43,600 bases of DNA from assembly GCA_027491415.1 (NCBI GenBank), contig JAOZFH010000006.1, forward strand, positions 1 through 43,600, given 5' to 3'. This stretch comes from Thermoproteota archaeon. GTDB lineage: Archaea > Korarchaeota > Korarchaeia > Korarchaeales > Korarchaeaceae. The position numbers and the translations under genes are program-made. Positions 7,299-42,476 of this stretch are shown here, piece after piece. The first letter of the stretch is position 1. Each line of letters opens with the position of its first letter. The notes beneath the pieces are model-generated. The model saw only the letters and a program-made list of their open reading frames with translations, was not told the origin of the DNA and ran no database searches.

Positions 7299-7299
7299 C

Positions 7300-7800: not shown

Positions 7801-8003
7801 TTCGGATCGCCCGCCGCCGCCCATAGGCGAACGTAAAAATCGTTGGCTTAGCAACTCTAACCCGGCTGGGGCATTGAGCGGATTGACTTGGGGACCTCCC
7901 CGCCGCCGGGACGGTCACCCAGAACCCGGGGTCGAGAATCGAACCCCCGGGAGCGCGAAACTCTTATTTGGCCCACCTATATCGCGCGTGAAGAGGTGAT
8001 CGG

Positions 8004-21571: not shown

Positions 21572-21740
21572 AGGTCAGCGGGCGCAGCCCGCCTCATAAC
21601 CCTGTCCCTATCTCCGCATCCAGACATCCGGACAGTCAAGTCCACGACCTGCCCAGCGCGGTCGGTTGCTGGACCTCGCGCCGTTTTTACCGCCGGATAA
21701 ATCGTTATTTTGGTCCCGGAAAAGTTCTCTAGGTGCGGAG

Positions 21741-22292
21741 ATGAGCCTGAGGGCAATCGAGGAGGACCCCCACAGGAGGGGGGTGCTCCGGGCCGAGGTG
21801 GACATCCCCCACTTCGGCAGGGTCGTGCTCAAGGACATGTTCCTGATGTCTACCCGATGGTGGGCGGACTTCATGGCCGGGCTGACCGTCTTCGTGGGTG
21901 AGAAGGGTCTGAGGCCGGTCTTGTACTACTCCGCCTACAGGATGATGAAGGTCCACGACTCCAAGGGCATAGTCTCAACCAAGGAGAAGCTGTCTCTCAG
22001 CGAGATGCTGGACGTGGCCAGGAGGGTTTACAGGTCCCTGGGGTTCGGCGACATCCTGTCGATCACGTTAGGAGAGGAGAAGGTGGTTGTCAGGGTAAAG
22101 GACTCGTTCGAAGCCAGGGGGAGGAGGTCGGATTCGCCCGTGTGTCACTTCACTGCCTGCCTCCTCGCCGCTCTGGTGGAGGACACGACCGGCATTCGAA
22201 TAGGCCCGATGATTGAGAGGGAGTGCCAGGCCGCTGGGGCGGACGCGTGCACATTCGAAGCGGAGGTCCTCGAGGGAGGAACCCGCAGTTGA
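21741..22292 (+). CDS. V4R-domain protein (CorQ-like candidate sensor)
   Basis: LGFG, SFEA, PVCHF and ERECQAAGADACTFE motifs; stop overlaps the next start (TTGA). Confidence 0.85.
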   Translation: MSLRAIEEDPHRRGVLRAEVDIPHFGRVVLKDMFLMSTRWWADFMAGLTVFVGEKGLRPVLYYSAYRMMKVHDSKGIVSTKEKLSLSEMLDVARRVYRSLGFGDILSITLGEEKVVVRVKDSFEARGRRSDSPVCHFTACLLAALVEDTTGIRIGPMIERECQAAGADACTFEAEVLEGGTRS

Positions 22293-23446
22293 GTCCACCT
22301 GGGGGCCGCGCCGAGGCGATAGCAGTCGTGAGGTCCATCGACGGCTGCGACTCCGCGTGCTCCTACTGCCCGCGCGCCGAGGAGAGGGTCCCTCCCCGTG
22401 GCTTCCTTGACCCCCACAGGGTTGAGGTCTTCTTGGACTCGCTGATAGGCTCTGGCCTGAGGCCCGACGTGTACTTCACGTGTCCTAACCCGCTGGCTCA
22501 CCCTAGGGTGGAGGAGCTGATCGCGGCGGCGACCGACAGGGGCTTGGAATCTCATGTGTTCGTCCCCGCGGCGGCCGGCTCCCGCGAGAGATCTCCAGAA
22601 CGCCTCATGAAAGCAGGCGAGATATTCCTGTTCTGCTACTCGACCTCCGAGCTTAAGCGCGCCAAGAGGTTCGTCAGGAGGCTCCTCGTGGCTGGGAAAT
22701 CCATGAGGTTGATGTCCATCTACGTCCCCGGGGTGAACGACGAAGAGATCACAGAGATGGTGAACATCGGCAGGTCGTGGGGTCTCCAGGTGTGGGTCTC
22801 TCCCCCGGTCTTCTGCCCGGTCACCAGGTGCCCAGCGGATGTGGTCAAGGCTATGCAGGGCAGGGGGTACGACGTCTCAGATCCCTTCGGAGAGTTCATG
22901 GGGATCTACGAGATGAGGGTGACGTTCCACCGGGACTTTCCGGTATACCTCCTCTCAGGCCCCAGATGTCGCAGGGAATGCAGGATAATCTACATGGACC
23001 CGTCCGGCTTGGTTGGCAAGTGCCCCATGCTGGGCCAGCTCAACCCAGCCTACGGGCCGGAGGAACTCCGGAGCATACTCGGCTCGGGGTGCGAGCTGAT
23101 AGAGCGCTCCGCGGCCTACTCGTTCATCCCCTCCCTCAGGCTGGTCACGAAGGACGGTCAGATCCTGGATGAAGACGATCTGGACCTGCTCTCTATGCTG
23201 GAGTCGACGGGGAGCCTCAGCGCCGTCGCGAGGAGCCTCGGGCTGTCCCCCCCAGCGGTGTACAGGAGGCTCAAGAGGATGGAGTCCGCGCTGGGGTTCA
23301 AGCTCTTCGAGTCGTGGAAGGGCGGCGCCGGACGGGGAGGCGTGGTCCTCACGCCGGAGGCCCTCGAGCTGGTGCGGTCCTACCGGGGCTACAAGGCTGG
23401 CCTGGGGATCGTCCGTTTTAACCTCATGTTAAACGAAAGGGCTTAG
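22289..23446 (+). CDS. Radical-SAM-fold protein fused to a C-terminal ModE/LysR-type HTH (candidate regulator)
   Basis: CDSACSYC (CxxxCxxC), C..IYMDPSGLVGKC twitch-like segment, then GSLSAVARSLGLSPPAVYRRLKRME..GGAGRGGVVLT; GGAGGA SD before TTG 22289. Confidence 0.8.
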   Translation: MSPPGGRAEAIAVVRSIDGCDSACSYCPRAEERVPPRGFLDPHRVEVFLDSLIGSGLRPDVYFTCPNPLAHPRVEELIAAATDRGLESHVFVPAAAGSRERSPERLMKAGEIFLFCYSTSELKRAKRFVRRLLVAGKSMRLMSIYVPGVNDEEITEMVNIGRSWGLQVWVSPPVFCPVTRCPADVVKAMQGRGYDVSDPFGEFMGIYEMRVTFHRDFPVYLLSGPRCRRECRIIYMDPSGLVGKCPMLGQLNPAYGPEELRSILGSGCELIERSAAYSFIPSLRLVTKDGQILDEDDLDLLSMLESTGSLSAVARSLGLSPPAVYRRLKRMESALGFKLFESWKGGAGRGGVVLTPEALELVRSYRGYKAGLGIVRFNLMLNERA

Positions 23447-23512
23447 TTAAATTTTTTACCTAAATCGGAGAATTTTTCTTGAGCGGGTTAAAAAAATCCC
23501 TAGGGGGGGTGA
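23417..23512 (+). promoter_or_regulatory. AT-rich promoter/operator region of the coo-hdr operon
   Basis: TTTAAC-N5-GTTAAA at 23417-23433, further GTTAAA at 23446 and 23487, GGTGA SD before cooF. Confidence 0.55.
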
Positions 23513-24136
23513 ATGGCAACCGTCCCTCCGAGCTACCTGGAATACCTCATCTACGTCGACCCTGAGAGGTGCGTGGGATGTAGGAGCTGTGAGATAGCCT
23601 GCGCGGTCGAGCATTCCTCCTCGAAGGAGCTGTTTCAGGCCGTCTTCGAGGACCCTGCGCCCAGGCCGAGGACGAAGGTCGTCCCGGCAGCCGGCGTTTA
23701 CGTCCCCATGAGGTGCATGCACTGTGATCCGGCCCCCTGCGTCGAGGCCTGCCCTACGGGGGCCATGCACAGGACGGACGAGGGCTTCGTCGTATCCGAC
23801 CTCGAGAAGTGCATAGGGTGCAGGACCTGCCTCCTCGCCTGCCCCTTTGGCCACCCGACCTACGACTTTAGGAGGAAGGTGGTGAAGTGCGACCACTGCG
23901 TTGACAGGTTCCGCGTTGGACTACCGCCAGCGTGCGTCGAGGCCTGCCCGACGGGGGCCCTGAGGTACGGCAGGGCGGAGGACATCTTGGACAGGGAGAA
24001 GATCAGGAGGGCCGCGGAGATGGTGCTCGGACTTGCGGAGGCGGCCGTGGTGTACGCCAAGCCCGCCGAGAGGGCTCCCAGGTCCCCCCTGGCATCTCTC
24101 AGGGAGATGTATGAGGCCGTGAGGTGGTCAGAATGA
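23513..24136 (+). CDS. cooF: CooF-type 4x[4Fe-4S] electron-transfer protein
   Basis: CVGCRSCEIAC, CMHCDPAPCVEACP, CIGCRTCLLACP and KCDHC..PACVEACP; ATGA overlap with cooS. Confidence 0.9.
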   Translation: MATVPPSYLEYLIYVDPERCVGCRSCEIACAVEHSSSKELFQAVFEDPAPRPRTKVVPAAGVYVPMRCMHCDPAPCVEACPTGAMHRTDEGFVVSDLEKCIGCRTCLLACPFGHPTYDFRRKVVKCDHCVDRFRVGLPPACVEACPTGALRYGRAEDILDREKIRRAAEMVLGLAEAAVVYAKPAERAPRSPLASLREMYEAVRWSE

Positions 24137-26091
24137 CTGCCGCGGAGGTTGAGAGGGGTAAGCCCGGGTCAGAGAGGGTCTACGAGAGGCTAATGAGGAC
24201 GGCCAGAAGGGAATTCTACGAGTCCGTCTCCATCGACCCCACCGTCCCCAAGCTCCTGGAGAAGGCCGAGATGGATGGCGCCGAGACGGCATGGCACAGG
24301 TACCTGGCTCAGCAACCTCAGTGCGGATTCGGTCTCCTGGGGGTCTGCTGCAGGAACTGCAACATGGGGCCCTGCAGGATCGATCCGTTCGGATACGGTC
24401 CCCAGAGGGGGGTATGCGGGGCCACCGCCGACACCATAGTGGCAAGGAACCTGATGAGGATGCTCGCCGCGGGGGCCGCCGCCCACAGCGACCACGCCAG
24501 GGACATTGTGGAGGTCTTCAAGGGGATACCCGAGGGGTGGGCCAAGGACTACGAGATAAAAGACCCAGAGAAGCTCAGGGGGATAGCTCGCGCCCTCGGG
24601 CTGGAGGTGGAGGGCAGGGAGCTGAACGACCTGGCGAGGGAAGTCGCCGAGATAATGGAGTGGGAGTTCGGCAAGCCCGGGGAGAAGCCCCTCAGGCTCG
24701 TGGAAGCCTACGCCCCCAAGAAGAGGATGGAGGTATGGAAGAAGGTCGGGATAGTTCCCAGGGCGATCGACAGGGAGGTCACGGAGATAATGCACAGGAC
24801 TCACATGGGAGTCGACGCCGACCCGCTCACCCTCATCGCCCAGGGACTCAGGTGCGCCCTAGCGGACGGGTGGAGCGGCTCAATGATGGCCACGCTCCTC
24901 AGCGATGTCATGTTCGGGACGCCGAAGCCGCTCAGGGCGGTGGCCAACCTCGGGGTGCTGAGGGAGGACGCGGTCAACATACTGGTGCACGGCCACAACC
25001 CAGTCCTGTCCATGAAGATAGCCGAGGTGGCCGGCGACCCCGAGCTGGTCCAGATGGCAAAGGACCTCGGCGCGGCGGGCGGGATCAACGTCGTCGGAAT
25101 GTGCTGCACCGGAAACGAGGTGCTCATGAGGCTTGGCGTCCCCATAGCCGGCAACATGCTCCAGCAGGAGCTGGCAATAGCCACCGGCGCGCTCGAGGCC
25201 GTGATCGTGGACTACCAGTGCATCATGCCGGCTATTGTGGACGTCGCCTCCTGCTACCACACCAAGGTGATAACGACGGAGCCCAAGGCGCACATCCCCG
25301 GCGCGATACACGTGGAGTTCGACAAGGCCAACGCCGTTGAGACCGCGAAGAAGATCGTGAAAATTGCCGTCGAGAACTTCAAGAATAGAAACCCTGACAG
25401 GGTAATGATACCGAAGGAGAAGTCAGAGCTGGTGGCCGGATTCAGCGTTGAGGCCATACTAGAGGTCCTCGGAGGCACGCTCGAGCCCCTCGCCGAGGCC
25501 CTCAGGACGGGGAAGATAAAGGGGATCGTCGGGATCGTGGGCTGCGTCAATCCGAAGGTCAGGCACGACCACAGCCACGTCACCCTGACGAAAGAGCTGA
25601 TCAAGAGGGACGTCCTCATTGTGGGCACCGGCTGCTGGGCCATCGCCATGGGGAAGCACGGCCTGCTCCTCCCAGAGGCCGCAGAGCTCGCCGGACCCGG
25701 ACTGAGGGATGTTTGCAAGGCCCTCGGCATCCCGCCGGCCCTTCACATGGGAAGCTGCGTAGACTGCTCTAGGATGCTGATAGCCCTGGCGGCGCTGGCG
25801 GAGCACCTCGGAGTCGACATACCCGACCTCCCGGCGGCTGGTTCCGCGCCGGAGTGGATGAGCGAGAAGGCCGTCTCCATAGGCTCCTACTTCGTGGCTT
25901 CCGGACTACTTGTGCACCTGGGGACGGTTCCTCCGGTGCTTGGCAGCAAGAAGGTCGTCGAGATACTCACCGACAAGGCGGAAGACCTAGTGGGAGGAAA
26001 GTTCCTGGTAGAGCCCGACCCGGTGAAGGCTGCCGAGCTCATCATGGCCCACATCCTGGAGAAGAGGAGGGCGCTGGGCTGGCCGGAGTGA
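24133..26091 (+). CDS. cooS: Anaerobic Ni,Fe carbon-monoxide dehydrogenase catalytic subunit
   Basis: QCGFGLLGVCCRNCNMGPC (D/B clusters); C-cluster ligands in HGHNP, MCCTG, DYQCIMP, VGC, TGC and GSCVD; SEKA. Confidence 0.97.
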   Translation: MTAAEVERGKPGSERVYERLMRTARREFYESVSIDPTVPKLLEKAEMDGAETAWHRYLAQQPQCGFGLLGVCCRNCNMGPCRIDPFGYGPQRGVCGATADTIVARNLMRMLAAGAAAHSDHARDIVEVFKGIPEGWAKDYEIKDPEKLRGIARALGLEVEGRELNDLAREVAEIMEWEFGKPGEKPLRLVEAYAPKKRMEVWKKVGIVPRAIDREVTEIMHRTHMGVDADPLTLIAQGLRCALADGWSGSMMATLLSDVMFGTPKPLRAVANLGVLREDAVNILVHGHNPVLSMKIAEVAGDPELVQMAKDLGAAGGINVVGMCCTGNEVLMRLGVPIAGNMLQQELAIATGALEAVIVDYQCIMPAIVDVASCYHTKVITTEPKAHIPGAIHVEFDKANAVETAKKIVKIAVENFKNRNPDRVMIPKEKSELVAGFSVEAILEVLGGTLEPLAEALRTGKIKGIVGIVGCVNPKVRHDHSHVTLTKELIKRDVLIVGTGCWAIAMGKHGLLLPEAAELAGPGLRDVCKALGIPPALHMGSCVDCSRMLIALAALAEHLGVDIPDLPAAGSAPEWMSEKAVSIGSYFVASGLLVHLGTVPPVLGSKKVVEILTDKAEDLVGGKFLVEPDPVKAAELIMAHILEKRRALGWPE

Positions 26092-26894
26092 TGGCCTTGC
26101 CCCTCAGGGTTCTCGTGGCCGGGAAGGGAGGGGTGGGCAAGACAACGGTGTCCGCCCTCCTCTCTCACTTTTTGCGCGACAGGGGTATGAGGGTCCTGGC
26201 GGTCGACGCCGACTCCGTTCCAAACCTGGGTATAGCGCTGGGCCTACCACCCGAGGTCGCGGGTTCCATAGTTCCCCTCGTGAGGAACGAGGAACTCGTG
26301 GAGCAGAGGACGGGCGCCCGACCCGGCCAGGCTTGGGGGGTCCTGTTTCGAGTCAACCCCAGGGTCGACGACCTGGCGGAGAGGTACGGGGTGAGCGTGG
26401 GAGGCGGCCTGAGCCTGCTGGTCGTGGGCAGCATAGACGCAGCCAAGCAGGGCTGCCTCTGTCCAGCAATTGCGCTGGCAAAGAGGCTCCTGAAGCACCT
26501 GGTCTCCTCCACCGACGAGTCGTCGGCGGTGATCGTGGACTCGGAGGCCGGAGCGGAGGTATTCGGCCGGGGGCTCGCCGAGAACTTCGATCACATGGTG
26601 TGCGTCTCCGAGCCCACGGTGGCCTCACTGGACATCTCCAAGCGCCTCCTCAGGATGGGCCGGCAGCTCGGGATCCGCGAGTTCTCCCTCATCGTCAACA
26701 AGATGCCTGAGAGAGGCGAGTCGCTCAGGGAAGCCATAGAGAGAAGGTTCTCCGGTGAGGCCAGGGCGTTTTTCGTCCCCAGCGACCCCGAGGTCCTGAG
26801 GGCGAGCATCGAGGGTAGGGGGGTGGGTACCCTCCCAGTCGACTCTCCAGCGGTCTCGGCCCTGAGGCGGACCTTCTCTGAACTGTTCGGGTGA
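26091..26894 (+). CDS. cooC: CODH nickel-insertion ATPase
   Basis: GKGGVGKTT, VDADSVPNL, GCLCP and DSEAG.E.FGRG motifs; TGATG overlap with cooS. Confidence 0.95.
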   Translation: MALPLRVLVAGKGGVGKTTVSALLSHFLRDRGMRVLAVDADSVPNLGIALGLPPEVAGSIVPLVRNEELVEQRTGARPGQAWGVLFRVNPRVDDLAERYGVSVGGGLSLLVVGSIDAAKQGCLCPAIALAKRLLKHLVSSTDESSAVIVDSEAGAEVFGRGLAENFDHMVCVSEPTVASLDISKRLLRMGRQLGIREFSLIVNKMPERGESLREAIERRFSGEARAFFVPSDPEVLRASIEGRGVGTLPVDSPAVSALRRTFSELFG

Positions 26895-26898
26895 TCAA

Positions 26899-28878
26899 AT
26901 GGAGTCGTCGGAGCCCAGGGTCGGAGTCTACGTCTGTCACTGCGGCAAGAACATCGCGGGCAAGGTGGATGTGAGGAGGGTGGCCAAGGAGGCTGGAAGG
27001 CACCCGAGAGTAGCCGTCTCTAGGGACTACTTCTTCATGTGCAGCCGGGCGGGGCAAGAGCTCATCAAGAGGGATGTGGAGGCGGGTAAGGTGGACAGGG
27101 TGGTCGTGGCGGCGTGCAGCCCCAAGCTCCACGAGCCCCTCTTCAGGAGGGTCGTGGTCGAAGCGGGCCTCAACCCCGGTTACATGGAGCAGGTGAACAT
27201 AAGAGAGCTGGTCTCCTGGTCAACCGAGGACCCCGAGGAGGCGACTCAGAAGGCCATCAGGTACGTCTTGGGGGGCGTGGAGAAGGTCCTGGCGGCTGAG
27301 CCCATCGAGGTTGGGGAGGCAGAGGTCGTTCGGGAGGCCCTAGTCATCGGAGGCGGGGTCGCTGGCCTCGCCGCGGCCTTGGACCTGGCGGAGAAGGGAA
27401 TCAGGGTTCACCTGGTGGAGCGCTCACCCACGGTGGGTGGGCTCATGGCCCTCTTGGACAGGGTGTTCCCGACCGGCGACTGCTCCCTGTGCATCCTGAC
27501 GCCCATGATGGCCGAGGCCGAGGCCCACCCACTGATCGACATCCACACCACCTCGGAGGTCGTTGAGGTATCCGGCTCGATCGGGGACTTCCGGGTGAGG
27601 GTGAGGAGAAGCCCCAGGTACGTGGATCCAGAGAAGTGCGTGGCGTGCGGGGTATGCGCCTCCAAGTGTCCTGTCGAGGTCCCGAACGAGTGGGACGCCC
27701 TCCTCGGCAAGAGGAAGGCCGCCTACATCCCGTATCCTCAGGCCACGCCGAGGGCCTACGTGATAGACCCGAACGCGTGTCTCTTCATCAGGGAGGGGTC
27801 CTGCGGGGCCTGCGTCGAGGCCTGCCCCACGAAGGCCATAGACCTCCACGAGGTGCCGCGGGAGTTCGAACTCAGGGTGGGGGCCATCGTGGTCGCAACC
27901 GGCGTCAGGGAGTACGACGCATCCAACCTCAAGAACTACGGCTTCGGGAGAATACCGGACGTGATAACCCAGCTCGGATTCGAGAGGCTGATCAACGTGA
28001 CGGGGCCCACCGGGGGGCACCTGAGGAGACCCTCGGACGGCAAGGTGCCGAAGAGAATAGTGTTCATACAGTGCGCCGGAAGCAGGGACGTGAACCACAA
28101 CCCCTACTGCTCGGGAGTGTGCTGCATGGTCTCGCTGAAGCAGGCCGAGATCGTGAGGTCCGAGTATCCGGACTCCAAGGTCTACATCTGCTACATCGAC
28201 ATGAGGACTGCGAAGAAAGGATTTGAGGAGATGTACGAGCGGGTCAGACGAGAGGGGGTAGTCTTCGTCCAGGGGAAGCCAGGGGAGGTCTGGAGGGACG
28301 GCGATGAACTAGTGGTGGAGGTGTTCGACAAGACCCTCGGCAGGAAGCTGGAGCTCAGGGCGGACCTCGTGGTGCTGGCCGCGGGATTGTCCCCGTCGGA
28401 GGGCACCCTGAAGGTTAGGGAGGTGCTCAACGTGGGAGCGGATCTCCACGGGTTCCTCCAGGAGCTCCACCCCAAGCTGAAGCCTGTGGAGACCTCTAGG
28501 CCGGGAATTTTCATCTGCGGTGGAGCCCAAGGCCCCAAGGACATCCCAGATTCGGTCGCTCAGGCGAAGGCGGCCGCCAGCGCTGCGGCTACAGTACTGG
28601 TGAGGGGGAGGGTTGAGGTCACCGGGGAGAGGGCCTACGTGGACCCGGAGCTGTGCGTCGGCTGCATGGCCTGCGCCGACGAGTGTCCGTTCGGGGCCAT
28701 CGTGGAGAGGGAAGGCAGGGCGGAGGTTGTCCCGGCCGCTTGCGCCGGCTGTGGAATCTGCCAGCCCGTCTGCCCGACCGGCGCGATAACCAGGAGGGCC
28801 TACGGGGTCGAGCAGGTGATGAGGCAGGTGGCCGGCCTCTTGGAGGCCGCGCCGACCTCGCGCGCGGGGGAGGTGTAG
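26899..28878 (+). CDS. hdrA: Heterodisulfide reductase subunit A (electron-bifurcating flavoprotein)
   Basis: GVYVCHCG, AACSP, GGGVAG, FPTGDCSLCILTP, inserted and C-terminal ferredoxin domains, QCAGSRD..YCSGVCC, GPKDIP. Confidence 0.96.
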   Translation: MESSEPRVGVYVCHCGKNIAGKVDVRRVAKEAGRHPRVAVSRDYFFMCSRAGQELIKRDVEAGKVDRVVVAACSPKLHEPLFRRVVVEAGLNPGYMEQVNIRELVSWSTEDPEEATQKAIRYVLGGVEKVLAAEPIEVGEAEVVREALVIGGGVAGLAAALDLAEKGIRVHLVERSPTVGGLMALLDRVFPTGDCSLCILTPMMAEAEAHPLIDIHTTSEVVEVSGSIGDFRVRVRRSPRYVDPEKCVACGVCASKCPVEVPNEWDALLGKRKAAYIPYPQATPRAYVIDPNACLFIREGSCGACVEACPTKAIDLHEVPREFELRVGAIVVATGVREYDASNLKNYGFGRIPDVITQLGFERLINVTGPTGGHLRRPSDGKVPKRIVFIQCAGSRDVNHNPYCSGVCCMVSLKQAEIVRSEYPDSKVYICYIDMRTAKKGFEEMYERVRREGVVFVQGKPGEVWRDGDELVVEVFDKTLGRKLELRADLVVLAAGLSPSEGTLKVREVLNVGADLHGFLQELHPKLKPVETSRPGIFICGGAQGPKDIPDSVAQAKAAASAAATVLVRGRVEVTGERAYVDPELCVGCMACADECPFGAIVEREGRAEVVPAACAGCGICQPVCPTGAITRRAYGVEQVMRQVAGLLEAAPTSRAGEV

Positions 28879-28881
28879 CGG

Positions 28882-29793
28882 ATGACCTCAGGATCAGAGT
28901 CGCCCGAAGGACCGAAGAAGCTCGTCGTCGGCTTCTGCTGCAACGAGTGCGCCTACGCGGCCGCCGACCTCGCGGGGAGCACGCACCGCACCCACCCGCC
29001 CAACGTGCTCGTGGTGAGGGTCCCCTGCTCGGGCGCGGTCGACCCGAGCTGGCTCCTCTACGCGCTGGCCAACGGTGCGGACGCGGCCTTCGTGGCCGGG
29101 TGCAGGAAGGGGGAGTGCCACTACGTGGACGGGAATCTGAAGGCCGAGAGCAGGGTGAGCTTCCTGAAGTCGCTGCTGGATGCCGTCGGGGTGGAGCCGG
29201 AGAGGGTGGAGATGTTCTTCATGGCCGCCTCCGAGCCCCACAGGTTCGTCGAGGCCGCCAGGGAGATGGCCGCCAGGGTGGAGGCGCTACCCCCACTCCA
29301 CCGGAGGGAGAGCGTGCCTGTGGGCCCCAAGAGAGAGGCGCTAATCCGCGCCCTTCAGTCCATCGCCGTGGAGGTTAGGGACGTCCCGCTGCCGGCGATA
29401 CCAGGGTTCGAGGTGCCCGTGTTCGACTTGGACAGGTGCATCGGCTGCGGGGCCTGCATCGAGGCCTGCCCCGAGGGTGCCATTCACTCCGAGGATCGCG
29501 GCGACTTCAGGGTGTTCCTCCTGTCCGCCCTCAAGTGCACCGGCTGCGGGGACTGCGTGGACGCCTGCCGGGAGAACGAGGTCGAGGCGCTCTCGCTCGG
29601 CGGGGTGAGGGTCCCACAGCTCCTGAGCGAATGGAGTGAGGTGGCTAGGCTTGAGCTGACGAGGTGTTCGGTCTGTGGGAGGCCGTTCGCCACGGATCGC
29701 GAACTCGAGAGGGCCGACTCACCTCCGATCTGCCCTGAGTGCAAGGCCAAGGCCTCTGCCAAGGCGATATCCTTTGGGAGGGTGAGATTGTGA
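28882..29793 (+). CDS. mvhD: MvhD-type [2Fe-2S] protein fused to a 2x[4Fe-4S] ferredoxin and a CxxC..CxxC tail
   Basis: GFCCNECAYAAADLAG, RVPCSG, GC..GECHY..GN; then CIGCGACIEACP, CTGCGDCVDAC and CSVC..CPEC. Confidence 0.9.
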   Translation: MTSGSESPEGPKKLVVGFCCNECAYAAADLAGSTHRTHPPNVLVVRVPCSGAVDPSWLLYALANGADAAFVAGCRKGECHYVDGNLKAESRVSFLKSLLDAVGVEPERVEMFFMAASEPHRFVEAAREMAARVEALPPLHRRESVPVGPKREALIRALQSIAVEVRDVPLPAIPGFEVPVFDLDRCIGCGACIEACPEGAIHSEDRGDFRVFLLSALKCTGCGDCVDACRENEVEALSLGGVRVPQLLSEWSEVARLELTRCSVCGRPFATDRELERADSPPICPECKAKASAKAISFGRVRL

Positions 29794-30272
29794 GCCTAGC
29801 GAAGCGCGTGCTCGAGATCTCCGGCCAGGACGTGACGAAGTGCTTCCAGTGCGCGGAGTGCACGTCCTCGTGCCCCAGCGCCGGGCTTGACGGCTTCTAC
29901 CCCCACAGGCTGATCAGGGCTATCCTCTTGGACCTGAGGGATGAGGTGTTTCGCGGGGATTACAAGCTGTGCATGCACTGCCACCTCTGCTCAGTCCGGT
30001 GCCCCGTGGGGCTGAACTTTCCAGAGGTTGCCATCGCGCTGTCCAACGTAGAAACCAAGGAGAGAGGCCCGGATAATGTGGAGCGGGCTTTCATCTCTGA
30101 ACTGAGCAAGAGAGCTTTTGTTAACCCTGCGAGGGTGGCGCTGTCCGCTCTGGGAGTTCGAGCTCTTGCGCTGGCTGGCCTACGCGGCCTGAAGCTGGCC
30201 GGCATGCTCGCCGAGTCCGGGTCGGTGAGGGAGGAGTACAGGCGGGAGGTGGCGAGGGTTGTCAGGGGATGA
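29790..30272 (+). CDS. hdrC: Heterodisulfide reductase subunit C
   Basis: CFQCAECTSSCP and CMHCHLCSVRCP; GTGA overlap with mvhD. Confidence 0.9.
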   Translation: MSLAKRVLEISGQDVTKCFQCAECTSSCPSAGLDGFYPHRLIRAILLDLRDEVFRGDYKLCMHCHLCSVRCPVGLNFPEVAIALSNVETKERGPDNVERAFISELSKRAFVNPARVALSALGVRALALAGLRGLKLAGMLAESGSVREEYRREVARVVRG

Positions 30273-31017
30273 GGTGGCCTACTATCCGGGATGCTCCGCG
30301 CTGACCACGGAGAGGCCCTACCTGAGGACCGCCGAGGTAGTGCTCGAGAGACTGGGCGTGCCCCATCGCCTAATAGACGACGCGCCCTGCTGCGGGACCG
30401 TCGAGCTGGAGATGGTGGACAGGCGGGCCTCTCGGAGGGTAGCGGAGATCGTCGCGGAGGTGGCGGACGGGGCGACCCTCGTCACAGGGTGTTCCGGGTG
30501 CTATGGGACCCTCAGGAGAAGTGGAGTCGGAGTCACGCACCTGATCGAGTTCCTCGGCAGGAGGGTCGGGGCAGAGGAGATTGCAAGGAGGGTGGTCAGG
30601 AGCTGGCCCGTCAAGGTCGCCCCCTACTACGGCTGCCAGGCACTGAGGCCGAGAGAACAAGCCATCGATGACCCCGAGGATCCTCAAATCCTGGAGGAAC
30701 TCATGGCGGCCATCGGCGCCGAGCCCGTGGACTTCAGGATGAGGATCAAGTGCTGCGGCGGACCGATTCTCCTCCGCCGGCCCGAGTATGCCAAGCAAAT
30801 GGCCAGATCCGTTCTGGAGTCGGCCAGGGAGGCAGGGGCGGAGTGCGTTGTCACCATATGCAACCTCTGCCACTTCATGCTGGACTTCTACGGGGGAGGG
30901 GTCCTACCAGTGCTCCACGCGACCCAGCCGATCGCCTACGCTCTCGGGGAGCCCGTCGATGGTCTGGGGCTCGAGGAGCACTTCACTCCCGTACCCGGGG
31001 GGCTGTTCCACCCGTGA
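30259..31017 (+). CDS. hdrB: Heterodisulfide reductase subunit B
   Basis: Two CCG domains: YPGC..CCG..CSGC and YYGC..CCGG..CNLC. Confidence 0.92.
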   Translation: MSGDEVAYYPGCSALTTERPYLRTAEVVLERLGVPHRLIDDAPCCGTVELEMVDRRASRRVAEIVAEVADGATLVTGCSGCYGTLRRSGVGVTHLIEFLGRRVGAEEIARRVVRSWPVKVAPYYGCQALRPREQAIDDPEDPQILEELMAAIGAEPVDFRMRIKCCGGPILLRRPEYAKQMARSVLESAREAGAECVVTICNLCHFMLDFYGGGVLPVLHATQPIAYALGEPVDGLGLEEHFTPVPGGLFHP

Positions 31018-31077
31018 CCCAGGCCCTCCTCCACGCCCCCAATTTCTTTGAGTCGCGCGTCGAGGGAGGTGATCGCC

Positions 31078-31269
31078 GTGTGTGAGGGAGTCGCCCTGCT
31101 GATCTCCTCAAGTTCTGAGAAGACCGTCATGGAGGAGGTGGTCTCAGTCAGCATCAGTGGGGGTAGAATCACCCTCGTGAACGAGGATGGAGACGTGTTG
31201 GAACTCCTGGGCGTTAAGGAAGTCTTGGTCGACCTGATAAGGCACCGAGTGATGATAGTCACTGAGTAG
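31078..31269 (+). CDS. cooT: CooT nickel-binding protein
   Basis: Starts M-C-E after a GGAGGTGA SD; VMEEV and VDLIRHRV motifs; 63 aa. Confidence 0.85.
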   Translation: MCEGVALLISSSSEKTVMEEVVSVSISGGRITLVNEDGDVLELLGVKEVLVDLIRHRVMIVTE

Positions 31270-32438: not shown

Positions 32439-33431
32439 GTGAACCTTCTGGACCTCGTTCTGTCTAGGGAGAAGAGGATGGCCGCTCCTCTCGTTACCTA
32501 TCCCGCCCTAAAGCTACTCGGGGCTGATGTAGATCAGGCCCTCGGCGATCCCGAGATCCACTCTGAGGCGGCTAAGCTGACTCTGACCGAGTTCGGCTTG
32601 GACATGATGCTACCGCTGATGGACCTCACTGTCGAGGCTGAGGCGATGGGAGTCAAGGTAAGGATGTCGCCAACGGAAGCGCCGACGGTGGTTGAGCACC
32701 TCTCGATGGAGGAAGCCTTGGCCATGGCTATTGCCAACCTCCCCGACCCTGAGAGGGATGCCAGGTTTCCGGACTTCCTCAGGGCGGCCGAGCTGATGAG
32801 GTCGAAGTGCCCAAGGGAGATCCCGCTTGGGTTCTACCTGCTAGGTCCTTTCACCTTGGCGGGGCAGCTGGTCGGCGTCACAACCCTCCTCAAGGCAGTC
32901 AGGAGGGATCCCGAGTCAGTTTCGCAGCTCGTTGAGATGTGCACGGAGGTGCTGGCTAGGTACGCGGATGGCCTGGCTCAGCGAGGGGTTGACTCTCTAG
33001 TTATGGCGGAGCCCACGGCGGGGCTCGTCTCGAGAGAGGACTACGTCAGGTTCTCCGGGAATCCCACTGCTGAGCTCACGTCTCGAGTTCCGTCTCAGTG
33101 GATCCTCCATATCTGCGGCAGGTCGGGGCACCTCGTGGACCTAATGGCTCAGACGGGGGTGGTCGGGGTGAGCTTAGATCACAATGTGGATCTCTTAGAG
33201 GCCGCCGAGAAGGTGTCGGACGAGATACTGCTCGTCGGGAACTACTCGCCGGTGAAGGTCGCAATGGAATCCGCAGACGTGATCAGGCAAGAGGTAAGGG
33301 ATCTGTTAGAGAGGCTCTCGTCCATTCCAAACCTGATATTCAGCACAGGGTGCGACGTGCCAATGAGGGCCCCGCTAGAGAACGTGAAAATTCTAGCGGA
33401 GGTCGCGCACGAGTTTTCCCAGCCTTCCTGA
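32439..33431 (+). CDS. UroD/MtaA-CmuA family methylcobamide:thiol methyltransferase (MT2)
   Basis: DLTVEAEAMG, GPFTLAG, Zn ligands LHICG and STGCDVP; corrinoid gene context. Confidence 0.88.
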   Translation: MNLLDLVLSREKRMAAPLVTYPALKLLGADVDQALGDPEIHSEAAKLTLTEFGLDMMLPLMDLTVEAEAMGVKVRMSPTEAPTVVEHLSMEEALAMAIANLPDPERDARFPDFLRAAELMRSKCPREIPLGFYLLGPFTLAGQLVGVTTLLKAVRRDPESVSQLVEMCTEVLARYADGLAQRGVDSLVMAEPTAGLVSREDYVRFSGNPTAELTSRVPSQWILHICGRSGHLVDLMAQTGVVGVSLDHNVDLLEAAEKVSDEILLVGNYSPVKVAMESADVIRQEVRDLLERLSSIPNLIFSTGCDVPMRAPLENVKILAEVAHEFSQPS

Positions 33432-38394: not shown

Positions 38395-40344
38395 TCAGAC
38401 CAACCTCGACTTGAGCTTCTCCAATAGGTTCTTGTGCCTATCGGCGACGACGAGGCCGTCCATCTTCTCCACAACCTCTTGGAAGCGGAACAGGTCAAGG
38501 TGAGGCAGGTACATAGAGGCCATGAACTCCTCTTGGAACCTGGGATGAGCCGCCAGTTCATAATACCTGATCTTCTGCGCGATTTCCCAGCACTCTCTTC
38601 TCTTGTCGATTGATATGAGAGCAACCCTTGCTCCTACACCAGCAGCGTTTCCCACCTGCGTTATCTTCTCCAGTGGAAAGTCTGGCAGCATCCCGATCCT
38701 CTTGGCGCTGGCTGGGTCGATGTAGAGCCCAAACGCCCCTGCCATGAACACCCGCTCCACGTCCTTCACAGAAACCCCCATTTCGCTCATGAGGATCGAG
38801 GCCCCGGTGTGCATGGCCGCCTTCGCCTTCTGGAGCTCTCTGACGTCCCGCTGCGTGATCACTATATCCTTCCCAATTGCCGTCTCGTCTGCAAAGGCCA
38901 GGATGAACTCCATTCCGTCTGGTCCCTTTCTGATCCTCTCATGCTCGCGCTCCAGTATCTTGCCGGTCGTGTCTATCACTCCGGCGCTCAACATCTCTGC
39001 TAGGGCGTCCACGATGCCCGACCCACAGATCCCCTTCGGGCTCACCCCGTCTACCACAGAGTATTTCACGTCGAGGGTGTTGGGGTCGATCCACACCCTC
39101 TCGATGGCCCCTGAGGTGGCCCTCATCCCGAACTTTATGTGAGCTCCCTCGAAGGCCGGCCCGGATGCGCAAGAGACCGCGTGCATCTCATCCGAATTTC
39201 CTATCACGATCTCTGTGTTAGTACCCACGTCTATCATGAAGGAGAGTTCGCTTGACAGGTGAATTCCCGTGCTGAGCACATCAGCCACAGCGTCCGCCCC
39301 AACAAAGCCGGCGACGTTGGGCAGCAGGTGAACGTTTCCAGTTGGGAGCATCTCCACTCCAAGGTCACAGGCCCTAACATCGAGCGGGCTGTCGATCACT
39401 GGGGTGTAAGGCGCCTCAGCCAAGTCACGGGGGGGGAGACCCAAGAAGAGGTGGTGCATGAGCGTGTTGCCAGCCACTACGAGTTCGACGACCAGCCTCG
39501 GGTCGACTCGGGCAGACTCGCAGGCCTCACGAATGAGGCCGTTGATTCCCTGAATGATCACCCTATGAAGCTCTCTGAACCCCTCTTCCGTCCTGCTGTG
39601 AGCTATCCTGGCGATGACGTCTTCTCCAAACGGAATCTGTGGGTTGGGAGCGGAGGAGACGGAGACCAGCTCGCCGCTCCGCAGGTCCACTAGATAGCCC
39701 GCCAGCTTTGTCGTCCCTATGTCTACGGCGAATCCGTAGAGTCTCTCATCTTCTCCCGGTCTCACGTCTAGCAACCCGACATCCGTATGCCACACTATCG
39801 TGACGGTCCAGTTTCCCTTCTTGACGGCACGTGGGAGGTACCTCAGCACACGCAGATCCGCCCGAAGGCTTCCTTTGTGGGGGAGTTTACTGATCAGGCG
39901 TTCGAAGTGAGCCCTCGGGTCGCTGAGACTGGGCTTTGGGAGCTTTAGAACAGCGATGTGGGCGGCAGGGTTGAGCTCGACTTCTACATGCTTGCCCTCA
40001 ACAAGCAACCTCTGCCTCCCGCTTCTACTCTGCTCCGGAACTTCCACGACAACCTTTCCCCTGCCAGAGAACCTGGCCTGGCACGCCAGCCTGAACCCGG
40101 CCCTCAGCTCACCTGGTTCCAGGTACCTCTCTTCGCTAGAGCTTGGAGGGCTCAGCAACTCTCTCCCCTCTCTGATTATCACCTTGCACTTCCCACAGAG
40201 TCCGAGTCCTCCACAAATTGACGTTATATCGACTCCCAGGTCTTTAGCGGCCTCCAAGATGGTTTTGTCAGTAGAATACCACCCTCGGCGGCCTTCAGGT
40301 TGAAAAATGGCTAGGAGACCCCGTTTCTTGGTTGGATAATCCAT
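38395..40344 (-). CDS. ASKHA-type reductive activator of corrinoid proteins (RACo/DUF4445) with N-terminal [2Fe-2S] domain
   Basis: CGGLGLCGKC..RLACQ, DIGTTK, GFVGAD, DVGTNTE, GPAFEG, GICGSG, AGAFG and GNAA motifs. Confidence 0.93.
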   Translation of the reverse strand: MDYPTKKRGLLAIFQPEGRRGWYSTDKTILEAAKDLGVDITSICGGLGLCGKCKVIIREGRELLSPPSSSEERYLEPGELRAGFRLACQARFSGRGKVVVEVPEQSRSGRQRLLVEGKHVEVELNPAAHIAVLKLPKPSLSDPRAHFERLISKLPHKGSLRADLRVLRYLPRAVKKGNWTVTIVWHTDVGLLDVRPGEDERLYGFAVDIGTTKLAGYLVDLRSGELVSVSSAPNPQIPFGEDVIARIAHSRTEEGFRELHRVIIQGINGLIREACESARVDPRLVVELVVAGNTLMHHLFLGLPPRDLAEAPYTPVIDSPLDVRACDLGVEMLPTGNVHLLPNVAGFVGADAVADVLSTGIHLSSELSFMIDVGTNTEIVIGNSDEMHAVSCASGPAFEGAHIKFGMRATSGAIERVWIDPNTLDVKYSVVDGVSPKGICGSGIVDALAEMLSAGVIDTTGKILEREHERIRKGPDGMEFILAFADETAIGKDIVITQRDVRELQKAKAAMHTGASILMSEMGVSVKDVERVFMAGAFGLYIDPASAKRIGMLPDFPLEKITQVGNAAGVGARVALISIDKRRECWEIAQKIRYYELAAHPRFQEEFMASMYLPHLDLFRFQEVVEKMDGLVVADRHKNLLEKLKSRLV

Positions 40345-40417
40345 CCAACCATCGTTATGGTTCAACTAACTATAATAGTTTGATCCCCTTGCCCCCGGTA
40401 GGCAGGGTGGGTCTGCC
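40345..40417. promoter_or_regulatory. Divergent promoter region with two short palindromes
   Basis: AACCAT-cgtt-ATGGTT (40347-40362) and AACTAT-a-ATAGTT (40368-40380). Confidence 0.5.
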
Positions 40418-41074
40418 ATGAGTGAGGGGGAGGCTATCCTGAGGGGTTTAGCCGAGTCTGTGATCGATGGCGACGAGGACCGCGCGCGGGAGTTTGCAAA
40501 GAAAGCGGTCGATGCCGGGATAGACCCGCTGACAGCGATAAAGGAGGGTCTCATGAGTGGCATGAAGGTGGTCGGCGACCGGTTCTCCCGGCTTGAGATC
40601 TTCCTTCCCGAGGTTCTTCTCGCCGCAGACGCCATGAAGGCGGCTCTTGAGATTCTGGAGCCGCTCATAGTGAAGGAAGAGAGGGAAAAGCTCACGCTGG
40701 GTAAGGTGGTCATAGGCACAGTGCAGGGCGACATCCACGACATCGGGAAGAACATCGTGGCCATGCTGCTGAAGGCGAACGGCTTCGAGGTTTACGACCT
40801 CGGCAGAGACGTTCCAATAGACGAGTTCATCAACAAGGCCGAGGAGGTCGGGGCAGACATAATCGCGATTTCGACCCTCCTGTCGACCTCAATGCCGTAC
40901 ATGGAAGATGTGATAAGGCTCCTGAAGGACAGGGGGCTTAGAGAGAAGTATAAGGTTATGGTGGGCGGAGGTCCCGTCACGAGGGAATTCGCGGAGGAGA
41001 TAGGAGCGGACGGGTACGGGGACAACGCCGAGGAGGCCGTCGAGGTGGCCAAGAAGCTCCTTGGGAGGGCGTGA
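40418..41074 (+). CDS. Methyltransferase cognate corrinoid protein (MtmC/MtbC/MttC family)
   Basis: FLPEVLLAADAM cap, GDIHDIGKNIV (DxHxxG), DLG.DV and MVGGGP motifs. Confidence 0.95.
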   Translation: MSEGEAILRGLAESVIDGDEDRAREFAKKAVDAGIDPLTAIKEGLMSGMKVVGDRFSRLEIFLPEVLLAADAMKAALEILEPLIVKEEREKLTLGKVVIGTVQGDIHDIGKNIVAMLLKANGFEVYDLGRDVPIDEFINKAEEVGADIIAISTLLSTSMPYMEDVIRLLKDRGLREKYKVMVGGGPVTREFAEEIGADGYGDNAEEAVEVAKKLLGRA

Positions 41075-41077
41075 AAA

Positions 41078-42448
41078 ATGGTGCTCTCCATCTGGGAAGT
41101 GCTGGACCTGGCCGAGAGCGGCCCCTACATGAGCGAGAGAGACTTCGACCTCAAGGTCGTCGCGAGGCTCTGCAGGGAGCTGGTCAAGGAGTACGACATA
41201 AGGTACGACCCAGAGCAGATAGTGACGAGCGACGACAGCCTCGCGGACGATGTCTTCGAGGCCGGCTTCAGGCTCGCCGTAGAGACTGGAATTTACTGCA
41301 TCAACACGAAGAGGATCATAAGATTCACGGAGGAGCAGATCAAGGAGGGCATCGAGTCGGCGCCTGAGCAGATAACTGTCGGGTGGGGCAAGGACGCGAG
41401 GGTCCTCTACGCGAGGAAGGTAGAGGACTCCAGGTACCCCATCATAATGGGCGGCCAGGCTGGGGCGCCGATACCGGAGGAGTTCCACCTCCCGATGGCC
41501 ATGTCATACATTAAGGAGCCCCTGATAGACACGATAAACCACGGCGGGCTAGCGGTGGTCGAGGGAAGAAAGGTCAAAACCGGGAGCCCGCTCGAAGTGC
41601 AGGCCACTAGGAGGGAGCTTCGGAACCTCAAGGAGGCGGCCAGGAGGGCCGGTAGACCAGGCATACACTTCTTGGCGGGGGAGAGCAGCAACACCTGCAT
41701 CGGGGACCTGGCGATTGCCTCCGACGAGTACATGCAGACCACGGACGCCCACCTCATTGCTATCCTAAACGAGCTGAAGACGGACTACGACAGGCTGACC
41801 AAGGCAGTGAACTTCACGGAGTACGGGGCCATGAACGTGACCCTGGTGGACCCAATCATTGGTGGCTACGCTGGGGGACCGGCCGGTGTTGCTGTGAACT
41901 TCGTCGCCTCGTTCCTGCTGGGGAGGCTCCTTTACCAGTCGGTGTACCACATATGCCATCCGATCCACTACAAGATCGTGAGCACCAGCGCCCCGGAGGG
42001 CATGTGGGAGCTCAGCGTCGTCGGTCAGGCGATGGCCAGGCACACCCCATTCATAATCATGGGGGACGTATGGACGTCGGCCGGCGCCGGGACCGAGATG
42101 ATATTCTACGAGATCACGGCGAACACGGTCACGAACGTCGTGACCGGCACGCACCCGCTGGGCGTCTCGGCCACCAACGGCACCTACCCGAACGCCAGCG
42201 GCCTGGAGACGAGATTCATGGCCGAGGTGGCTAGGGCCACCGTGAAGGCGGGCCTGAAGAGGTCGGAGGCCAACGAGATCGTGCTAGAGATGCTTAAGAG
42301 GTACAAAGACAAGCAGGAGAAGCCGGACATAGGGAAGCCGTTCCCAGAACTCTACGACGTGGCCACAGTGACCCCCAGGGAGTGGTGGCAGGACCTGTAC
42401 AACAGGATGAAGTCCGAGATCGCCACCCTGACGGGCCTCCCGCTCTGA
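41078..42448 (+). CDS. mtmB: MtmB-family corrinoid methyltransferase without pyrrolysine (paralog 1)
   Basis: DDSLADDVFEAG, AGRPG, LNELK, PIIGGYAGG, G.E.RFM.EVARA and GK.F.E.YD..TVTP motifs; no in-frame TAG. Confidence 0.9.
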   Translation: MVLSIWEVLDLAESGPYMSERDFDLKVVARLCRELVKEYDIRYDPEQIVTSDDSLADDVFEAGFRLAVETGIYCINTKRIIRFTEEQIKEGIESAPEQITVGWGKDARVLYARKVEDSRYPIIMGGQAGAPIPEEFHLPMAMSYIKEPLIDTINHGGLAVVEGRKVKTGSPLEVQATRRELRNLKEAARRAGRPGIHFLAGESSNTCIGDLAIASDEYMQTTDAHLIAILNELKTDYDRLTKAVNFTEYGAMNVTLVDPIIGGYAGGPAGVAVNFVASFLLGRLLYQSVYHICHPIHYKIVSTSAPEGMWELSVVGQAMARHTPFIIMGDVWTSAGAGTEMIFYEITANTVTNVVTGTHPLGVSATNGTYPNASGLETRFMAEVARATVKAGLKRSEANEIVLEMLKRYKDKQEKPDIGKPFPELYDVATVTPREWWQDLYNRMKSEIATLTGLPL

Positions 42449-42476
42449 TCCGCCCATCCACGACGTGGTGATCCTC

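Follow-up and report, generated by a model that had tools for sequence, protein, structure and literature searches.

HdrABC-MvhD, a heterodisulfide reductase (Hdr) with its adaptor subunit MvhD, is a textbook flavin-based electron-bifurcating enzyme. In a non-methanogen, Desulfovibrio, the FlxABCD-HdrABC system reportedly (it is ascribed to Ramos et al. 2015) has a soluble Fe-S donor module and an MvhD-like subunit encoded upstream of hdrABC. The donors listed in a 2025 survey of HdrA clusters are NADH, reduced coenzyme F420 (F420H2), H2 and formate, and the term 'carbon monoxide' is absent from the parts of it available to us (PMC12054007). Here we describe, in a 43,600-nt stretch of DNA from a Korarchaeales archaeon (contig JAOZFH010000006.1, hereafter the window), eight genes on the + strand (23513-31269) that join the genes of a Ni,Fe carbon monoxide dehydrogenase (CODH) to those of an Hdr in the order cooF, cooS, cooC, hdrA, mvhD-fdx, hdrC, hdrB and cooT-like, mvhD-fdx being an mvhD fused to a ferredoxin-type domain. 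On the comparative evidence set out below, we consider, with a rough probability of 0.6, that this operon encodes a soluble CO:disulfide(+ferredoxin) oxidoreductase in which CODH feeds HdrABC-MvhD. All of its parts belong to known families, and CooS/CooF as the donor module of HdrABC-MvhD would be the new combination.

The window is contig C22 of the source draft genome (G000; 1.78 Mb, 63 contigs, 96% complete) and has a G+C content of ~63%. Three conserved 16S rRNA primer motifs had no match in the G000 assembly. Gene identities were assigned from Pfam and NCBIfam matches, and the junction spacing was read off the sequence. The eight genes named in the initial annotation were all called correctly and lie on the + strand at the coordinates given there; together with the upstream genes they are as follows.

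21666-22292, + strand: V4R-domain protein, component of a putative CorQR-like regulator (PF02830 V4R, E=2.4e-11)
22223-23446, + strand: radical-SAM-like (S-adenosylmethionine) domain (PF04055, 31.9 bits) with a C-terminal LysR-type helix-turn-helix (HTH) domain (PF00126 HTH_1, E=4e-12), component of the same putative CorQR-like regulator
23447-23512, + strand: AT-rich promoter-like spacer upstream of cooF, by sequence reading, with the ribosome-binding-like run GGGGGGGTGA at its end
23513-24136, + strand: cooF, 4x[4Fe-4S]-type electron-transfer protein, 16 Cys (PF13247 Fer4_11, E=4.6e-22)
24133-26091, + strand: cooS, catalytic subunit of Ni,Fe CO dehydrogenase (TIGR01702, 769.7 bits against a cut-off of 478)
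26091-26894, + strand: cooC-like Ni-insertion ATPase (PF01656 CbiA; P-loop GKGGVGKTT, CLC motif)
26899-28878, + strand: hdrA, flavoprotein of 659 aa with N-terminal, inserted and C-terminal Fe-S domains (643.8 bits to 5odc_A)
28882-29793, + strand: mvhD fused to a HycF/CooX/NuoI-type 2x[4Fe-4S] domain and a C-terminal four-Cys ribbon, 303 aa (PF02662, 154.3 bits)
29790-30272, + strand: hdrC-like, 2x[4Fe-4S] (two CxxCxxCxxxC motifs)
30274-31017, + strand: hdrB-like, two CCG domains, 10 Cys, 247 aa (PF02754, 88 bits in two stretches)
31078-31269, + strand: cooT-like small putative Ni chaperone, 63 aa (orthologue profile to CooT 6fan_A, E=1.5e-4)

The tight packing noted earlier for the first seven genes was borne out, all of them overlapping or lying within 4 nt of each other. 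The stop of cooF and the start of cooS share an ATGA overlap, with the cooS start at ATG 24133, which is directly preceded by a TGA stop in two congeners; cooS and cooC overlap by 1 nt, and gaps of 4 nt and 3 nt separate cooC from hdrA and hdrA from mvhD. The mvhD/hdrC junction is a GTGA overlap if hdrC starts at GTG 29790 (a 55-nt overlap with the alternative GTG 29739), and hdrB follows hdrC after 1 nt if it starts at GTG 30274 (a 14-nt overlap with the alternative TTG 30259). The spacing is wider between hdrB and cooT (60 nt), 5' of cooF (66 nt) and 3' of cooT (236 nt). The gene order also agrees with the statement that the CODH maturation genes cooC and cooT bracket the hdr genes.

The arrangement was followed through 41 genomes, G000 and 40 relatives (labelled G001 on and grouped in genera and families, g1 being the genus of G000; fetched loci carry L numbers). 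A CooS match was found in 18 genomes, and the surroundings were fetched for 16 of the 17 matches outside G000, leaving out G001, where the match lies at a contig start. The synteny proposed as a check in the initial annotation, cooS beside hdrA-mvhD-hdrCB, was recovered: hdrA lies directly 3' of cooC in nine of the 16 fetched loci, which come from three genera (G002, G003 and G004 in g1; G010, G013, G016 and G019 in g3; G008 and G011 in g5), with identities of 72-98% for HdrA, 66-95% for MvhD-fdx, 46-97% for HdrC and 55-95% for HdrB. The seven other fetched loci are those of G014, of G027, of G028 (a 3.6-kb contig) and of four genomes from other families. In metagenomes, the MvhD-fdx alignment picked up 17 loci, eight of which carry the cooC-hdrA cluster. 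Since the arrangement recurs in nine of 16 relatives' loci, in three genera across which Hdr subunit identity is only 46-74%, and in eight of 17 metagenome loci, it is, as far as gene order can tell, not a product of chance. The genes downstream of the cluster show no conservation between genera in the fetched loci.

The distribution of HdrA follows that of CooS. Orthologous HdrA (at least 72% identity) occurs among the 41 genomes only in the nine Hdr-linked ones and in G000, always beside CooS; within g3, both proteins are present in four of ten genomes and neither is present in the other six. The HdrA types of genus g2 are others (47-49% identical), and no CooS is found there. By this gene content, the CODH and Hdr modules are inherited together. 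With each species represented by a single genome, the 80 closest CooS loci include none in which hdrA comes after cooC, many of these loci being short and the set being no full census; in one of them (L033) an hdrC-hdrB-hdrA run begins ~5.6 kb downstream. The cluster looks confined to this lineage.

The same CODH cassette is followed by other redox modules elsewhere. In an Asgard locus (L001, CooS 70% identical), the regulator-cooFSC cassette precedes group-4 hydrogenase genes, namely antiporter-like, NuoH-like, [NiFe] large-subunit and ferredoxin genes. G014, a member of the family, has regulator-cooFSC, then cooT, and then group-4 hydrogenase genes as in L001; and in a bacterial metagenome-assembled genome (L002, 11863-15589, CooS 66% identical) cooF-cooS-cooC is followed by NuoE/NuoF/NuoG-like genes. 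Because this cassette precedes either group-4 hydrogenase or NuoEFG-like genes in those loci, the Hdr of the window is, by gene order, in the position of the acceptor module. The CooS tree was built on 25 rows, with nine of the 77 loci L004-L080 used and with G028 (partial), G032 and G038 left out. In this tree, the nine Hdr-linked rows form, with G027 nested as a tenth, one clade with support of 100/100. The hydrogenase-linked G014 is sister to this clade (87/85), and next come L001 and L002. The tree was midpoint-rooted for drawing only, and the direction of an exchange between energy-converting hydrogenase (ECH) and Hdr is not to be read from it. In G027 (family f3; locus L102, 162-4616), cooF-cooS lies beside the genes of a 278-aa Fer4_11 protein, read divergently, and of a 277-aa HdrB-like protein that has two CCG domains, and neither HdrA nor MvhD is encoded within this 10.8-kb locus. 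This arrangement may represent a simpler CODH-to-CCG link.

The entry point of the Hdr module carries a domain of the kind found in CODH-linked hydrogenases. The MvhD domain of the fusion scores 154.3 bits with PF02662 (cut-off 22.3; residues 15-136), its best NCBIfam model is of the HdrA2 type (161 bits), and residues 14-144 align with MvhD of the solved complex (5odc_D, 119 bits). Residues 182-278 align with a formate hydrogenlyase (FHL) subunit (7z0s_F), and NuoI-type chains also match. Moreover, the C-terminal half is 31% identical (E=3e-14) to the hydrogenase Fe-S subunit of the Asgard locus (L001:18389-18916), in an alignment that reaches the first CxxC of the C-terminal four-Cys ribbon; that subunit is itself 39% identical to the corresponding gene of G014. 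At the level of sequence similarity, this half of MvhD-fdx is a homologue of the HycF/NuoI-type Fe-S subunit of a CODH-linked hydrogenase. All 18 Cys are invariant among nine orthologues, including those of the ribbon Cx2C-x18-Cx2C (residues 262-303, window 29665-29793). The protein cluster to which MvhD-fdx belongs in the atlas has 107 members, 86% of them from Archaea, with Thermoproteota the commonest.

Structure prediction of the fusion with CooF, part of a further check proposed in the initial annotation, gave a score of 0.61 compared to 0.41 for the best of three controls. The runs share at least 80% of their contacts, the pLDDT (predicted local distance difference test) of the partner is 71, and the predicted interface involves residues 189-299 on the side of the fusion and, on that of CooF, the cluster loop at 101-115. 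Of 80 solved complexes, 58 attain the mark applied, as do 2 of 110 mismatched pairs; these counts are only approximate here because the prediction was built on our own alignments. Docking of CooF on the fused ferredoxin half is a borderline pass in these models, and we take it as support, not as proof.

In the operon proteins, the Cys motifs for metal clusters are intact wherever they were checked. CooS, whose score lies above the TIGR01702 equivalog cut-off, aligns over residues 31-651 with a solved CODH (6t7j_B, 1020.8 bits), which we take to be the Thermococcus enzyme. The motifs QCxFGxLGVCCRNCxMGPC, GMCCTGNE, DYQCIMP, GCxNP, GTGCW and GSCVDC are all identical to those of 6t7j_B, so that the motifs, which would hold the Cys and His ligands of the B, C and D clusters, are complete, as in a Ni,Fe-CODH. 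This CooS is the sole Prismane/CODH match in G000. CooF is 44-53% identical to the genes adjoining cooS in L001-L003, and its 16 Cys are all invariant among eight orthologues. The CooC-like protein matches only general CbiA/MinD-type models, retains the P-loop and the CLC motif, and is 49-53% identical to the gene 3' of cooS in L001-L003. The CooT-like protein scores 19.3 bits with PF10133, less than the 27 required. When the PDB was searched with a profile built from ten orthologues, the solved CooT 6fan_A was matched end to end (2-59 against 2-58, E=1.5e-4). Cys2 of the CooT-like protein, presumably the Ni-binding residue, is invariant in ten of ten orthologues. In genus g5 the cooT-like gene is not 3' of hdrB and lies on the other strand, ~1.4 kb away in one locus (L103) and 2.9 kb away in the other (L104), where two small open reading frames (ORFs) and a radical SAM gene follow it.

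HdrA aligns over residues 4-648 with residues 2-650 of 5odc_A, from the solved Mvh-Hdr complex (643.8 bits), across the N-terminal, flavin adenine dinucleotide (FAD), inserted ferredoxin and C-terminal ferredoxin domains, and the Cys motifs coincide. The two CCG motifs of HdrB are complete with five Cys each (C7, C39, C40, C73 and C76; C121, C160, C161, C196 and C199), and the Cys of both align with those of HdrB 8rvu_b. The HdrA domain set, the double CCG of HdrB and the MvhD/FlpD domain are those of the HdrABC-MvhD family.

The initial annotation had taken CooS/CooF for the donor module of the Hdr. This proposal is strengthened because the unit is conserved, because orthologous HdrA occurs only next to CooS, and because the cassette feeds other acceptors elsewhere; the HycF/CooX-type domain also speaks for it, and the part of it that concerns a CooF contact stands at a borderline level. 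We infer the formation of a complex, the direction of electron flow, bifurcation and a CO-dependent regulation as follows. CO would be oxidised by CooS, matured by CooC and CooT. CooF would pass the electrons to the HycF/CooX-type ferredoxin half of the MvhD fusion, and HdrA would take them up on its FAD from the [2Fe-2S] cluster of MvhD. They would divide there: HdrC would relay one branch to HdrB, whose two non-cubane clusters would reduce a disulfide, and the inserted ferredoxin domain of HdrA would convey the other to ferredoxin. Modelled on that of MvhAGD-HdrABC, the reaction would read 2 CO + 2 H2O + RSSR + Fd(ox) -> 2 CO2 + 2 RSH + Fd(red) + 2 H+. Transcription would probably be switched on by CO via the CorQR-like pair.

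The rest of the genome bears on which partners the Hdr could have. No second HdrA, HdrB or HdrC was found in G000 by tblastn. The claim that hydrogenase, formate dehydrogenase, Flx and acetyl-CoA synthase (ACS) genes are missing stood for the window, where none of these (FlxA-type in the case of Flx) is present among the scanned ORFs, and did not extend, as regards hydrogenase, to the whole genome: a group-1-like [NiFe] hydrogenase, the sole PF00374 match in G000, lies on contig C43 (L123, 7226-13647). Its gene set comprises small and large subunits, a 263-aa ORF with no Pfam match and a 446-aa HdrD-like Fer4+CCG protein, with HypD and HypF nearby, and this hydrogenase has, by its gene neighbourhood, its own HdrD-like acceptor. 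An Mvh-type hydrogenase and the acetyl-CoA synthase CdhC were not found in G000. The other CCG proteins of the genome were considered as a second Hdr and rejected, one being GlcF-like beside a GlcD-like oxidase and the other the hydrogenase-linked HdrD-like protein. A weak FlpD match on contig C56 was likewise rejected as a second MvhD; it is a 538-aa polyferredoxin beside a Psr-like enzyme, and this enzyme, a molybdopterin oxidoreductase, is encoded on the same contig (L125, 1994-7699) together with its Fer4_11 and NrfD subunits.

PF00346 (NuoD-type) has no match in G000. This protein family is present in 23 of the other 24 genomes of the taxonomic family, the four congeners among them, and the first gene of the contig, a Nuo/Mrp antiporter-like one (window 2-1405), is cut by the contig end. 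For these two reasons we rejected the absence as evidence, and an assembly gap probably accounts for the missing nuo-like operon of G000. Reduced ferredoxin might then find its outlet in a Nuo-like complex.

Several observations weigh against the oxidoreductase that we propose. The disulfide substrate has no candidate, as neither McrA nor DsrC was found in G000, and hints of coenzyme M are limited to a ComA-like gene (241 bits; cut-off 280), with no neighbouring com genes, and an MtaA-family gene. None of HdrA, HdrB and HdrC attains the equivalog cut-offs that NCBIfam sets for CoB-CoM reductases: HdrA reaches 801 bits with its best model, NF040770 (HdrA2), compared to a cut-off of 1100, and 650 against 1400 with a further model; HdrB reaches 114.7 against 345, and HdrC 53 against 160 (TIGR03290). 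Because of these scores, and with no McrA found in the genome, we file the subunits, on their family matches, as HdrABC-type and not as reductases of the heterodisulfide of coenzymes M and B (CoM-S-S-CoB). Furthermore, the complex prediction clears its mark by the exact minimum margin (+0.20), one unrelated control having reached 0.41. Four of the 17 metagenome loci (L134-L137) have an MvhD-ferredoxin fusion in an Flx-like hdr cluster that lacks cooS, so the fused ferredoxin domain is not specific to CODH; these fusions are the nearest non-CODH relatives of MvhD-fdx (35-38% identity), and their gene order is Fer4_22 protein, NAD_binding_1/DHODB protein, Fer4_11 protein, hdrA, mvhD-fdx, hdrC and hdrB. 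G000 is also a draft, and one congener (G002) has a group-4-like large subunit elsewhere in its genome, so other Hdr partners are conceivable.

A free carrier would be enough if the two modules were co-regulated and nothing more: CooS/CooF would reduce free ferredoxin, and an Hdr of the same regulon, in no complex with it, would draw on free ferredoxin, on H2 via the group-1 hydrogenase, or on F420H2 or NAD(P)H, much as HdrA2B2C2 does. The best NCBIfam match of HdrA is indeed HdrA2, at 801 bits, whose characterised member is described, in the portion of that report available to us, as ferredoxin- and F420H2-dependent (PMC5296606); a hydrogenase is encoded elsewhere in the genome, and the complex prediction is borderline. 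Against such a separation, the coding sequence from cooC to hdrB is near-contiguous, with stop and start codons overlapping or a few nt apart, none of the 41 genomes has the orthologous HdrA apart from CooS, the MvhD fusion has a domain type found in CODH-linked hydrogenases, and the group-1 hydrogenase has an HdrD-like acceptor gene of its own. We regard separate modules as unlikely. A complex run backwards, in which thiol and reduced ferredoxin are oxidised to drive CO2 to CO for carbon assimilation, would make use of the reversibility of Ni-CODHs and of the capacity of Hdr complexes to confurcate, as stated in the part of the 2025 survey at hand (PMC12054007). This appears very improbable: with no CdhC found in the 96%-complete genome CO would have no sink, and the mean potential of thiol and ferredoxin lies far above that of the CO2/CO couple.

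If CODH does feed the Hdr, there are two ways in which the electrons might be used. The standard potentials are about -520 mV for CO2/CO, about -500 mV for ferredoxin and about -140 mV for the heterodisulfide. At standard (one-atmosphere) CO, a further point that counts against our proposal, CO reduces ferredoxin directly and bifurcation is unnecessary. A linear chain from CooF through MvhD-fdx, HdrA and HdrC to HdrB, with no ferredoxin product, would be a non-bifurcating CO:disulfide reductase, serving either a reduced thiol pool (redox homeostasis, stress protection) or a disulfide or polysulfide as terminal acceptor. CO as an already low-potential donor does not require coupling, the G027 locus has cooF-cooS beside Fer4_11 and HdrB-like proteins with neither HdrA nor MvhD, and the Psr-like molybdoenzyme of the genome suggests that sulfur compounds may matter; in such a chain, however, the inserted ferredoxin and FAD domains of HdrA, complete by comparison with 5odc_A and conserved at 72-98% identity in three genera, would be superfluous. 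Because the full ferredoxin arm of HdrA is kept across the three genera, we favour bifurcation over this linear chain, which seems to us improbable. The CO levels reported for aquifers are 0.2-20 nM (cited in PMC4703632, as far as that text was available to us), and at nanomolar CO a Nernst estimate puts the CO2/CO couple roughly near -380 to -400 mV, where CO would have to reduce ferredoxin uphill, so that it pays to couple this step to the reduction of a disulfide. Bifurcation would probably be needed under such conditions. Electron bifurcation by the CODH-fed Hdr nevertheless stays a tentative proposal, made by analogy and standing somewhat short of even odds. We hold with similar reserve the broader idea of a hydrogenase-free, CO-driven donor class for HdrABC bifurcation, which would obtain reduced ferredoxin from trace CO and would have arisen by an ECH-to-Hdr swap in which the hydrogenase-type Fe-S entry domain was kept, now fused to MvhD.

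The genes upstream of the operon suggest how it might be controlled. In Thermococcus, the CO-responsive pair CorQR consists of a V4R protein and a LysR-type HTH protein (PMC6557876 and PMC4791640, in the parts available to us). The pair upstream of cooF resembles it in domain make-up only, a PF02830 and a PF00126 protein standing beside a CODH cluster, and we describe it as putative CorQR-like, CO-responsive regulators. The V4R gene is conserved in the g1, g3 and g5 loci and in the Asgard locus L001. The radical-SAM-like/HTH protein has a CX3CX2C motif at residues 42-49 and is conserved in the relatives, its homologue in L001 being 25% identical. Within the spacer at 23447-23512, ~45 nt are nearly identical among three g1 genomes (G000, G002 and G004), and the g3 genomes have a different, partly similar core, AAATTCGGAA. 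This spacer may be an operator or a promoter.

Other genes of the window touch on related chemistry. A methyl-transfer gene set lies at 32439-33431 and 38395-43598. Its members are an MtaA/CmuA-family protein, which scores 165 bits where the cut-off is 235, a corrinoid activase of the RACo type on the - strand, a B12-binding corrinoid protein (40418-41074) and a pair of MtmB-family ORFs with no in-frame stop, the second of which runs past the window end. We considered these genes as a link to a CoM-type thiol and rejected them, there being neither an EamA nor an MtaA-family match in the fetched g3 and g5 loci. GcvH is present in G000. Two aldehyde:ferredoxin oxidoreductase genes are found at 5361-7854 and 11106-12941, and one of them adjoins a Fer4_11-type protein that is 38% identical to CooF.

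We found no description of a cooFSC-hdrA-mvhD-hdrCB operon in the literature as far as its text was available to us, and subscription journals and supplements may hold one. The accessible part of a 2026 survey of CODH contexts has no occurrence of Hdr, heterodisulfide, MvhD or bifurcat- (PMC13056359), and in that of a 2019 CODH survey hdr-like COGs appear only in the Wood-Ljungdahl context group (PMC6344411). The same negative also covers the available portions of 10.1101/2025.09.16.676500, PMC5861303, PMC6775978, PMC8065059, PMC4652020, PMC4703632, PMC4791640, PMC6557876, PMC11338639, PMC7325909 and PMC10469681. If the proposal is true, CO would join H2, formate, F420H2 and NADH as a donor for HdrABC, and hot-spring-type archaea would have a mechanism for the energy-efficient use of trace CO in which no hydrogenase takes part. 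It would also illustrate the exchange of redox modules, as ECH, NuoEFG and Hdr would all stand behind one cooFSC cassette. The unit is compact, with eight genes and thermostable relatives of solved proteins, is amenable to assay and cryo-electron microscopy, and may be of interest to those who build CO-driven reduction systems.

Altogether, the locus compares with the described systems as follows. The MvhAGD-HdrABC and FdhAB-MvhD-HdrABC complexes of methanogens (5odc, 8rvu, 7bkb) have an HdrA that aligns end to end with the one described here, an HdrB with both CCG motifs, a two-cluster HdrC and MvhD as the entry adaptor, and the same bifurcating core is expected here. The donor differs, being CooS/CooF here and a [NiFe] hydrogenase or formate dehydrogenase there; MvhD carries an additional HycF/NuoI-type ferredoxin domain and four-Cys ribbon, HdrB is shorter (247 aa), and the substrate is probably not CoM-S-S-CoB, since no Mcr was found. 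Compared to FlxABCD-HdrABC, the NAD(P)H-binding FlxA-type gene is absent, with CooS and CooC in its place; no NAD_binding_1/DHODB-type gene lies within 21666-31269, and one is present in the Flx-like metagenome locus L135. The HdrA2B2C2 enzyme of Methanosarcina acetivorans provides the best NCBIfam model for both HdrA and the MvhD domain; in the part of the report that we could consult, HdrA and MvhD are one polypeptide there, whereas they are two genes here, and the donor differs (PMC5296606). The Ehe cluster of Culexarchaeia is likewise archaeal and likewise has a CODH subunit co-located with Hdr subunits, while it combines, in the accessible text, a membrane [NiFe] hydrogenase core with CdhA, SdhA, GcvH and HdrA2B2C2 and lacks cooFSC-hdrA-mvhD-hdrCB (PMC9723716). 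Finally, the locus shares with the Thermococcus-type CODH-ECH and CorQR arrangement a V4R/HTH pair followed by cooF-cooS-cooC, G014 and the Asgard locus L001 being clusters of precisely that type, and the hydrogenase Fe-S subunit of that system is homologous to the domain fused to MvhD. Here, however, hdrA, mvhD-fdx and hdrCB replace the membrane hydrogenase and antiporter genes, with no group-4 [NiFe] hydrogenase gene beside cooFSC among the window ORFs scanned; the operon contains no hydrogenase, and protons are therefore not its encoded acceptor.

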